Assembly: GCF_057098645.1 (NCBI RefSeq)
Contig: NZ_CM169472.1
Strand: one strand, 5' to 3'
DNA: 64,000 bases
Each line of letters starts with the position of its first letter. The first letter of the stretch is position 1. Shown here piece after piece: positions 42,120 to 43,147 of the stretch. The notes below the pieces were generated by a model, which saw only the letters and a program-made list of their open reading frames with translations, had not been told where the DNA came from and made no database searches. The position numbers were made by a program, and so were the translations under genes.

Positions 42120-42507
42120 CATCATTGTTAATTAATTCGACCAGTCAGCAAATATGCTGACTGGTCGAACATAGTTCGCTAAAAAGTCATCACTGACTGA
42201 TGTCAGTCACACCATCCGCCAGTTCAATCTTCGGGTATTTCCAGCGTATCTCGGCACGCGATTGCTGGTCTGTTGATGTAGTGGATTGTTGTTGCTGACT
42301 TTTCTTACCCTCAGATTTCTGCCCCCTGTCAACTCAATCTGCCAATAAATAACATAATTATATTTTTCCTTATATGAATTCCTTTTTAAAATAGCGAAGC
42401 CACTGTAAAAGATACTTTTTGTATAGATCTAACAACCGTAATAAAACAAACACTCATAACTCATTATAAATAATGATAAAATAACGTCTTTTATTGATAA
42501 TTTACAT

Positions 42508-43147
42508 ATGAAAAAAATTTTCCTTTTGTTATATTATTTCTGTTTTCACTCCCTCTGATTATTTTTTACCAACCCTGGGTCACTGCATTATCGCCAACGC
42601 CCCGACACGTAATTCCTGAGCAATTAGAAAAAACAGTTCGTTATCTTACACAAATGTGCATCCACGTAATGCCGACAATATTGATAATCTGAATAGGTCC
42701 GTAGAGTATATAAAAGAGGTCTTTGTCAGTAGCGGTGCCAGAGTTACCGCGCAGGGCGTCCCCGATTGGCTATTACGACTCTGCGCCTGGTAGCCAGGAT
42801 TACCCTTACCCGCAATGTCCTGGCTTTATCCCGATCGGGGAGACTTTATTGCCGTGGTCGGCAGAATGCAGGATATCAACGCCGTTCGTCAGGTAAAAGC
42901 GGCATTGTTGTCATCTCAGGATTTATCTGTTTATTCTATGAATACCCCAGGGTTTATTCCCGGTATTGATTTCTCTGATCACCTGAATTATTGGCAACAC
43001 GATATTCCCGCCATAATGATTACTGACACCGCTTTTTATCGTAATAAACAATACCACTTGCCCGGTGATACCGCAGACAGATTGAATTATCAGAAAATGG
43101 CTCAGGTAGTGGATGGTGTTATAACTTTGTTATACAACAGTAAATAA
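42508..43147 (+). pseudogene. yfbL: Decayed M28-family peptidase gene (yfbL-like): signal-peptide start, frameshifts, in-frame TAG and truncated C-terminal ORF
   Basis: ATG at 42508 gives MKKIFLLLYYFCFHSL then stop; other frames give ...TALSPTPRHVIPEQLEKTVRYLTQ... and ...VEYIKEVFVSSGARVTAQGVPDW... ending in TAG at 42790-42792; in-frame 110-aa ORF 42815-43147 (...SDHLNYWQHD...YHLPGDTADRL...) resembles an M28 C-terminus. Confidence 0.55.

Follow-up and report, generated by a model that had tools for sequence, protein, structure and literature searches.

What has become, in the window, of the two genes that lie between elaD and yfbM in E. coli K-12? By the window we mean the whole stretch of DNA analysed, 64,000 nucleotides of contig NZ_CM169472.1 (assembly GCF_057098645.1), and all positions below are counted on it. 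The initial annotation had placed a decayed yfbL-like M28 peptidase gene and no yfbK at positions 42120-43147, and had noted that K-12 carries yfbK plus an intact yfbL at this place, which is indeed what a K-12-type genome contains. The two gene orders to be compared are:

K-12-type genome: elaD, yfbK (minus strand, 575 aa), yfbL (323 aa), yfbM, yfbN, yfbO, yfbP, nuoN.
E. coli O145 str. RM9872 chromosome (NZ_CP028379.1): menF, elaB, elaA, rbn, elaD, a pseudogene named 'M28 family peptidase, frameshifted', yfbM, nuoN.

Window positions 42100-43260 are 100% identical to the RM9872 chromosome, and matches to them were found in 5,363 of 5,426 complete E. coli genomes. In the annotation of NZ_CP028379.1 the 'M28 family peptidase, frameshifted' pseudogene (locus I3Y_RS15595, 100% identical to the yfbL relic of the window) corresponds to positions 42531-43147. 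The relic is a common gene-decay haplotype, already annotated as a frameshifted pseudogene in RefSeq. Our literature search on yfbL or yfbK found no paper on pseudogenisation of either gene; it did return a preprint on resistance to phage N4, discussed below, and a binding peak of LldR recorded for this locus in K-12. Taking all results together, the elaD-yfbM interval is in all likelihood the wreck of two genes without protein function, in which yfbK has been cut down, yfbL inactivated, and the remains left to neutral decay.

The lesions of yfbL were mapped against the intact alleles of 1424KP (a strain lacking yfbK) and K-12, and then in an alignment of nine sequences. Colinear alignment and frame-by-frame translation give exactly four lesions:

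42508-43147, plus strand: yfbL pseudogene, 640 bp as compared to 972 bp in the intact gene.
After 42518, plus strand: lesion 1, loss of 4 bp directly after ATGAAAAAAAT, past codon 4.
42654/42655, plus strand: lesion 2, loss of 1 bp in ACACAAA^TGTG.
42763/42764, plus strand: lesion 3, junction GTCCCC/GATTGG of a 326-bp out-of-frame deletion.
42812/42813, plus strand: lesion 4, loss of 1 bp in TTACCC^GCAATG.
42508-42518, 42519-42654, 42655-42763, 42764-42812 and 42813-43147, plus strand: the pieces of the native frame, which jumps four times.

The window copy sits in the same slot as K-12 yfbL, which encodes an M28 metallopeptidase of 323 aa between elaD/yfbK and yfbM, and its segments are colinear with that gene. 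It is without codons 88-196, the deletion cutting inside codon 196 and shifting the frame, and it carries three further frameshifting indels, so that no single uninterrupted frame runs across the M28 domain and the enzyme cannot be encoded. The decayed M28 gene and the internal deletion, the latter only a guess before, are both borne out by this alignment. The orthologous position is kept (synteny elaD-(yfbK)-yfbL-yfbM-nuoN), and homology to the intact gene is colinear, disabling lesions are present and further decay is lineage-specific, as expected of a pseudogene; no intact colinear orthologue is found in the window. Identity to the K-12 protein is 78-86% in the N-terminal pieces, and in the C-terminal third there is one difference in 110 residues.

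All features described by the initial annotation lie within 1-2 bases of the coordinates it gave, although not all of them mean what was supposed. The ATG at 42508, proposed as a signal-peptide start, does open MKKIFLLLYYFCFHSL* and translation from there ends after 16 codons; the peptidase-like peptides noticed in two other frames are the YfbL-like continuation, as tblastn and frame translation confirm. The in-frame TAG reported at 42790 exists (42791-42793), but it did not arise by nonsense mutation: these bases belong to GGT AGC (Gly-Ser) when read in the native frame, and the TAG is the first stop reached by the upstream frame because the 326-bp deletion shifts that frame.

Could the frameshifts be sequencing or assembly errors, in a gene that is otherwise intact but for a natural length variant? 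In favour of this, runs resembling homopolymers (AAA^T, CCC^G), where single-base indels lie here, are typical sites of such errors. Against it, the 326-bp deletion destroys yfbL by itself, and 2,034 complete genomes, independent of one another, have its junction. Moreover, the 1-bp loss at 42654/42655, which is restricted to a small, mostly O145:H28 group, reappears without any difference in some 30 independent assemblies, by which sequencing error is ruled out, and the other lesions of yfbL are also seen in O157:H7 and BL21 assemblies. The probability of such errors is practically negligible. As to how genuine lesions arose, only the 4-bp loss looks like slippage, judging from its tandem context: relative to alleles of the UTI89/STEC306 type, one tandem AAAT unit is gone. 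A search of the breakpoint sequences of the 326-bp junction found neither direct repeats nor microhomology.

The 326-bp deletion takes away the catalytic core of the protein. Intact K-12 YfbL matches Pfam PF04389 (Peptidase_M28) over residues 95-317 (E = 6.3e-25) and aligns with the Aeromonas/Vibrio leucyl aminopeptidase (PDB 1AMP and 3B3T). The deleted codons 88-196 include the motifs GAHYDS (H113), GADDNASG (D132), ASEEPP (E164/E165) and ALEMIG (E195). The alignment to YfbL was computed, and the 1AMP residues aligned here are those that we take to be the zinc ligands and the catalytic Glu. On this alignment the deletion is predicted to take out four of the five zinc ligands together with the catalytic Glu of YfbL. 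Of a complete co-catalytic zinc site (His, Asp, Glu, Asp/Glu, His) with its catalytic Glu, only the C-terminal SDH histidine region is left in the window. Descent from an M28 gene is nevertheless established, by the colinearity of the fragments with YfbL and by the Pfam match of the last of them.

This last fragment is still open, and the initial annotation had rightly described it as a truncated C-terminal ORF:

42815-43147, plus strand: 110-aa ORF in the native frame, corresponding to YfbL residues 214-323.

One might propose that it is a functional small protein, the truncated C-terminal domain of YfbL expressed independently. It is open, it starts with an ATG in the native frame, and a single one of its 110 residues differs from K-12 YfbL 214-323. 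Several findings speak against a protein of this kind. The Pfam M28 match is limited to model positions 132-191 of 193 (E = 3.5e-5), i.e. to the C-terminal third of the domain, and an NCBIfam search of the ORF and of YfbM returned no family for either. There is no signal peptide, of the five metal ligands no more than one survives, no Shine-Dalgarno-like sequence is seen upstream of the ATG (CCCTTACCCGCAATG), and the ORF is absent from the RefSeq gene calls. Finally, a 1-bp loss breaks it in O157:H7, BL21 and GPEC1176, all of which have the same ancestral 326-bp deletion; since carriers of the deletion have it frameshifted, the ORF is not a conserved gene. Independent function is very unlikely, and the ORF is an accidental open remainder rather than a gene. 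The near-identity and openness of the 3' third of yfbL could be a sign of constraint. More simply, they would reflect a recent origin or recombination with an intact allele, given that sister lineages have frameshifts in this segment. No active peptidase can be made from the locus as it stands: reading from the original ATG ends 16 codons on, and the surviving 110-aa ORF is without the metal site.

The statement that yfbK is missing holds for the full gene and not for all of its sequence. Using tblastn and blastn against K-12 we detected a remnant of 184 bp, in which both ends of the gene and an internal island of 21 bp are kept:

42190-42373, minus strand: yfbK remnant.
42190-42229, minus strand: yfbK 3' piece, the last 40 bp including the TGA stop (42190-42192 on the plus strand).
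42229-42249, minus strand: 21-bp island, K-12 yfbK codons 486-492.
42252-42373, minus strand: yfbK 5' piece, the first ~120-130 bp, about 75% identical to K-12.
42374-42507, no strand assigned: divergent yfbK-yfbL intergenic (promoter) region, 134 bp as compared to 137 bp in K-12.

The 3' piece encodes ...IELADGVTDISQ*, identical to K-12 YfbK residues 564-575 at 12 of 12 positions (tblastn), and positions 41800-42229 as a whole match 4013-4442 of the K-12 locus (L003) at 97% (blastn). The island reads IRWKYPK where K-12 has IRWKYPQ, with 19 of 21 bases matching L003 4655-4675, and is flanked by deletions of about 212 bp and about 1.32 kb; microhomology at the deletion junctions of yfbK amounts to 1 bp at most. 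At the 5' end the likeness is lower: positions 42252-42560 match L003 6001-6324 at 72% (blastn), and none of the intact alleles examined is closer than about 75% to the 5' piece. Where the start codon stood (42371-42373) the plus strand has TAT instead of CAT, and less than 15 codons further on the frame meets a stop. The two deletions together cost the 1,728-bp gene about 1.54 kb, the entire vWA domain included. In K-12 YfbK, a vWA-domain lipoprotein of 575 aa, the vWA-type NCBIfam matches cover residues 199-406 and the domain residues ~213-400; the window has counterparts only for residues ~1-43, 486-492 and 564-575. The remnant agrees with K-12 yfbK in strand and in orthologous position, and the presence of both ends of the gene together with the island means that yfbK has been deleted here, not gained in K-12.

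It follows that the ~390 bp described as AT-rich non-coding DNA between the elaD-side hairpin and the start of yfbL is so only in part. The distance from hairpin to ATG is 340 bp and it is not uniformly AT-rich: in 100-bp windows GC is 0.44-0.50 over most of the yfbK remnant, ~0.3 at its 5' end and 0.19-0.24 over 42374-42507, the stretch that does deserve the description. For annotation the point to note is that seemingly empty DNA past elaD contains an unannotated yfbK remnant. There is also a 41-aa ORF on the minus strand inside the remnant (42207-42332). In 1424KP the ORF at the equivalent place is annotated as 'hypothetical protein' (WP_254911077.1), very likely a spurious call on pseudogene debris. 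An Rfam scan of 42000-43300 at permissive E-values gave chance-level matches only (E 0.6-0.95), with bit scores far under gathering, so that the stretch described as non-coding contains no known RNA element.

The palindromic hairpin reported past the elaD stop is present, one base from where it had been placed:

42138-42167, no strand assigned: perfect inverted repeat of 12 bp with a 6-nt loop, CGACCAGTCAGC-AAATAT-GCTGACTGGTCG.

It is located just past the elaD stop codon (42117-42119), between the convergent elaD and yfbK. Folded as RNA it has an energy of -29.1 kcal/mol (z = -8.8 as compared to shuffles), and it is conserved in K-12, where the copy is also seen as a reverse-strand self-match. 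A Rho-independent terminator would have a GC-rich stem-loop immediately followed by a T-run; no T-run follows this hairpin on either strand, and the terminator consensus scan did not call it. It is probably a transcript-end hairpin, and it may stabilise RNA ends or weakly terminate transcription in both directions. In the promoter and terminator consensus scan of 42000-43900 the counts were no higher than in shuffles. The sole terminator-like site called in this range is a small hairpin on the minus strand, ACTGACATCAGTCAGT (42192-42207), which lies across the end of the yfbK remnant, over the stop codon, with a T-run downstream; it may be the old yfbK terminator.

How widespread the two losses are, and in which order they occurred, was approached by population counts over 5,426 complete E. 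coli genomes:

326-bp yfbL segment present: 3,311 genomes.
yfbK body present: 2,538 genomes.
326-bp deletion junction, full-length match to a 60-bp probe: 2,034 genomes (37%).
Both yfbK remnant junctions, full-length match to a 96-bp probe: 2,376 genomes (44%).

If the classes are nested, an assumption that rests on sampling, ~2,540 genomes have both genes, ~340 have the yfbK remnant with intact yfbL, and ~2,030 are in the state of the window. More specifically, all 14 sampled rows listing yfbK also list intact yfbL, and all five deletion alleles aligned, the window included, have the yfbK remnant; sampled rows contained 1-2 matching places per record, the second being the elaD-side flank. The remaining genomes show other architectures, for example a joint deletion of elaD and yfbK with intact yfbL (FY10, contig L012). 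An outgroup scan using one genome per species and the back-translated pattern DHLNYWQHDIP returned a single E. coli contig only, in which yfbL is intact and both elaD and yfbK are missing.

The ancestral arrangement was a divergent pair: yfbK on the minus strand, encoding a vWA-domain lipoprotein, and yfbL on the plus strand, encoding an exported or membrane-anchored M28 zinc peptidase. Two internal deletions, of ~212 bp and ~1.32 kb, reduced yfbK to the 184-bp stub, and a single out-of-frame deletion of 326 bp inactivated yfbL by removal of its catalytic core. We infer that the deletions in yfbK came first and the one in yfbL later, because the same yfbK remnant stands beside an intact yfbL in 1424KP and AR_0114 and because the remnant is found in more genomes (2,376) than the yfbL junction (2,034). 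After the 326-bp deletion yfbL probably gained small neutral indels, the slipped AAAT past codon 4 and the single-base losses among them; some are common to other lineages and one is private to the small, mostly O145 clade. Four other alleles, O157:H7 Z1766, the BL21-derived BLK9, GPEC1176 and CDE6306, have the same 326-bp breakpoints as the window but different secondary indels, and it is for this reason that we regard the decay as neutral. O157:H7 has an additional A within an A-run, unlike the window; in BL21 and GPEC1176 a further 7 bp, retained in the window, are lost close to the 3' end; CDE6306 is without the 42812/42813 loss. Such a course, with yfbK lost, yfbL next and neutral indels last, would be standard stepwise decay in E. 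coli, and the shared 326-bp junction could be used as a simple lineage marker.

The ongoing accumulation of indels in yfbL is uninformative either way on whether its loss was selected. Resistance to phage N4 has been reported for the Keio mutants of yfbL and of yfbO in K-12, with sensitivity regained on complementation from ASKA plasmids (preprint, 10.1101/2025.09.29.679331). The loss of yfbL could on this ground have been positively selected, the deletion allele having risen in frequency as a natural resistance to N4-like phages. The window is without a working yfbL and lacks yfbO altogether, the deletion allele is very common (37% of genomes, in several lineages), and the intact haplotypes that its flanks resemble are not all the same, as would fit spread by recombination. 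At the same time, the N4 result comes from a single preprint and a K-12 background, absence of yfbO is the majority state, since yfbNOP is a K-12-type accessory insert, and high frequency is equally expected of an old neutral deletion inherited through whole phylogroups. We therefore consider positive selection for the loss of yfbL unlikely, and it is quite improbable that the deletion allele and the absence of yfbO together form a naturally selected resistance allele against N4-like phages. If this were true, more than one third of E. coli, including O157 and O145 EHEC, would owe part of their phage-susceptibility profile to a dead yfbL locus. The locus is of wider interest only if loss of yfbL alters the sensitivity of natural isolates to N4-like phages; the neutral decay of a two-gene wreck remains our preferred reading.

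Some observations concern the variability of the surroundings. From the yfbM stop to the nuoN stop (window 43754-43819) the yfbN-yfbO-yfbP segment, about 2.56 kb in K-12, is absent and yfbM leads directly into the hairpin on the nuoN side. This segment is present in only 948-1,013 of the 5,426 genomes, almost always at identities of at least 99%, and the window is in the majority state; yfbNOP in K-12 looks like a recent accessory insertion.

A divergent haplotype occupies positions 42252-42520. It takes in the 5' remnant of yfbK and the intergenic region, extends in some strains over the first ~20 codons of yfbL, and is only ~75% identical to each of the yfbK-positive haplotypes examined. These (K-12, UTI89, STEC306) are about 94% alike, and the flanks of the divergent segment are 97-99% identical. 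The window allele reverts to the common type near codon 4 of yfbL, and 1424KP, AR_0114 and FY10 are divergent to about codon 20. This pattern of identities suggests a haplotype that is old or imported, plus recombination.

The neighbouring elaD (ElaD/SseL deubiquitinase, 40887-42119) is intact in the window, with 410 aa. In GPEC1176, CDE6306, AR_0114 and STEC306 its annotation records a frameshift or an internal stop, FY10 has a truncated stub, and none is annotated between rbn and yfbK in UTI89; in contig L012 yfbL is about 0.5 kb from rbn, too close for elaD to fit in between. In E. coli the whole segment from elaD through yfbL looks like a hotspot for the decay of genes. Insertion sequences are found in and near it in other E. 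coli genomes: IS1 in the elaD-yfbM interval of one genome and IS1B within yfbK of another, an IS200/IS605 tnpA between yfbM and nuoN in 1424KP, and the IS3-family element ISEcB1 past yfbM in a BL21 derivative.
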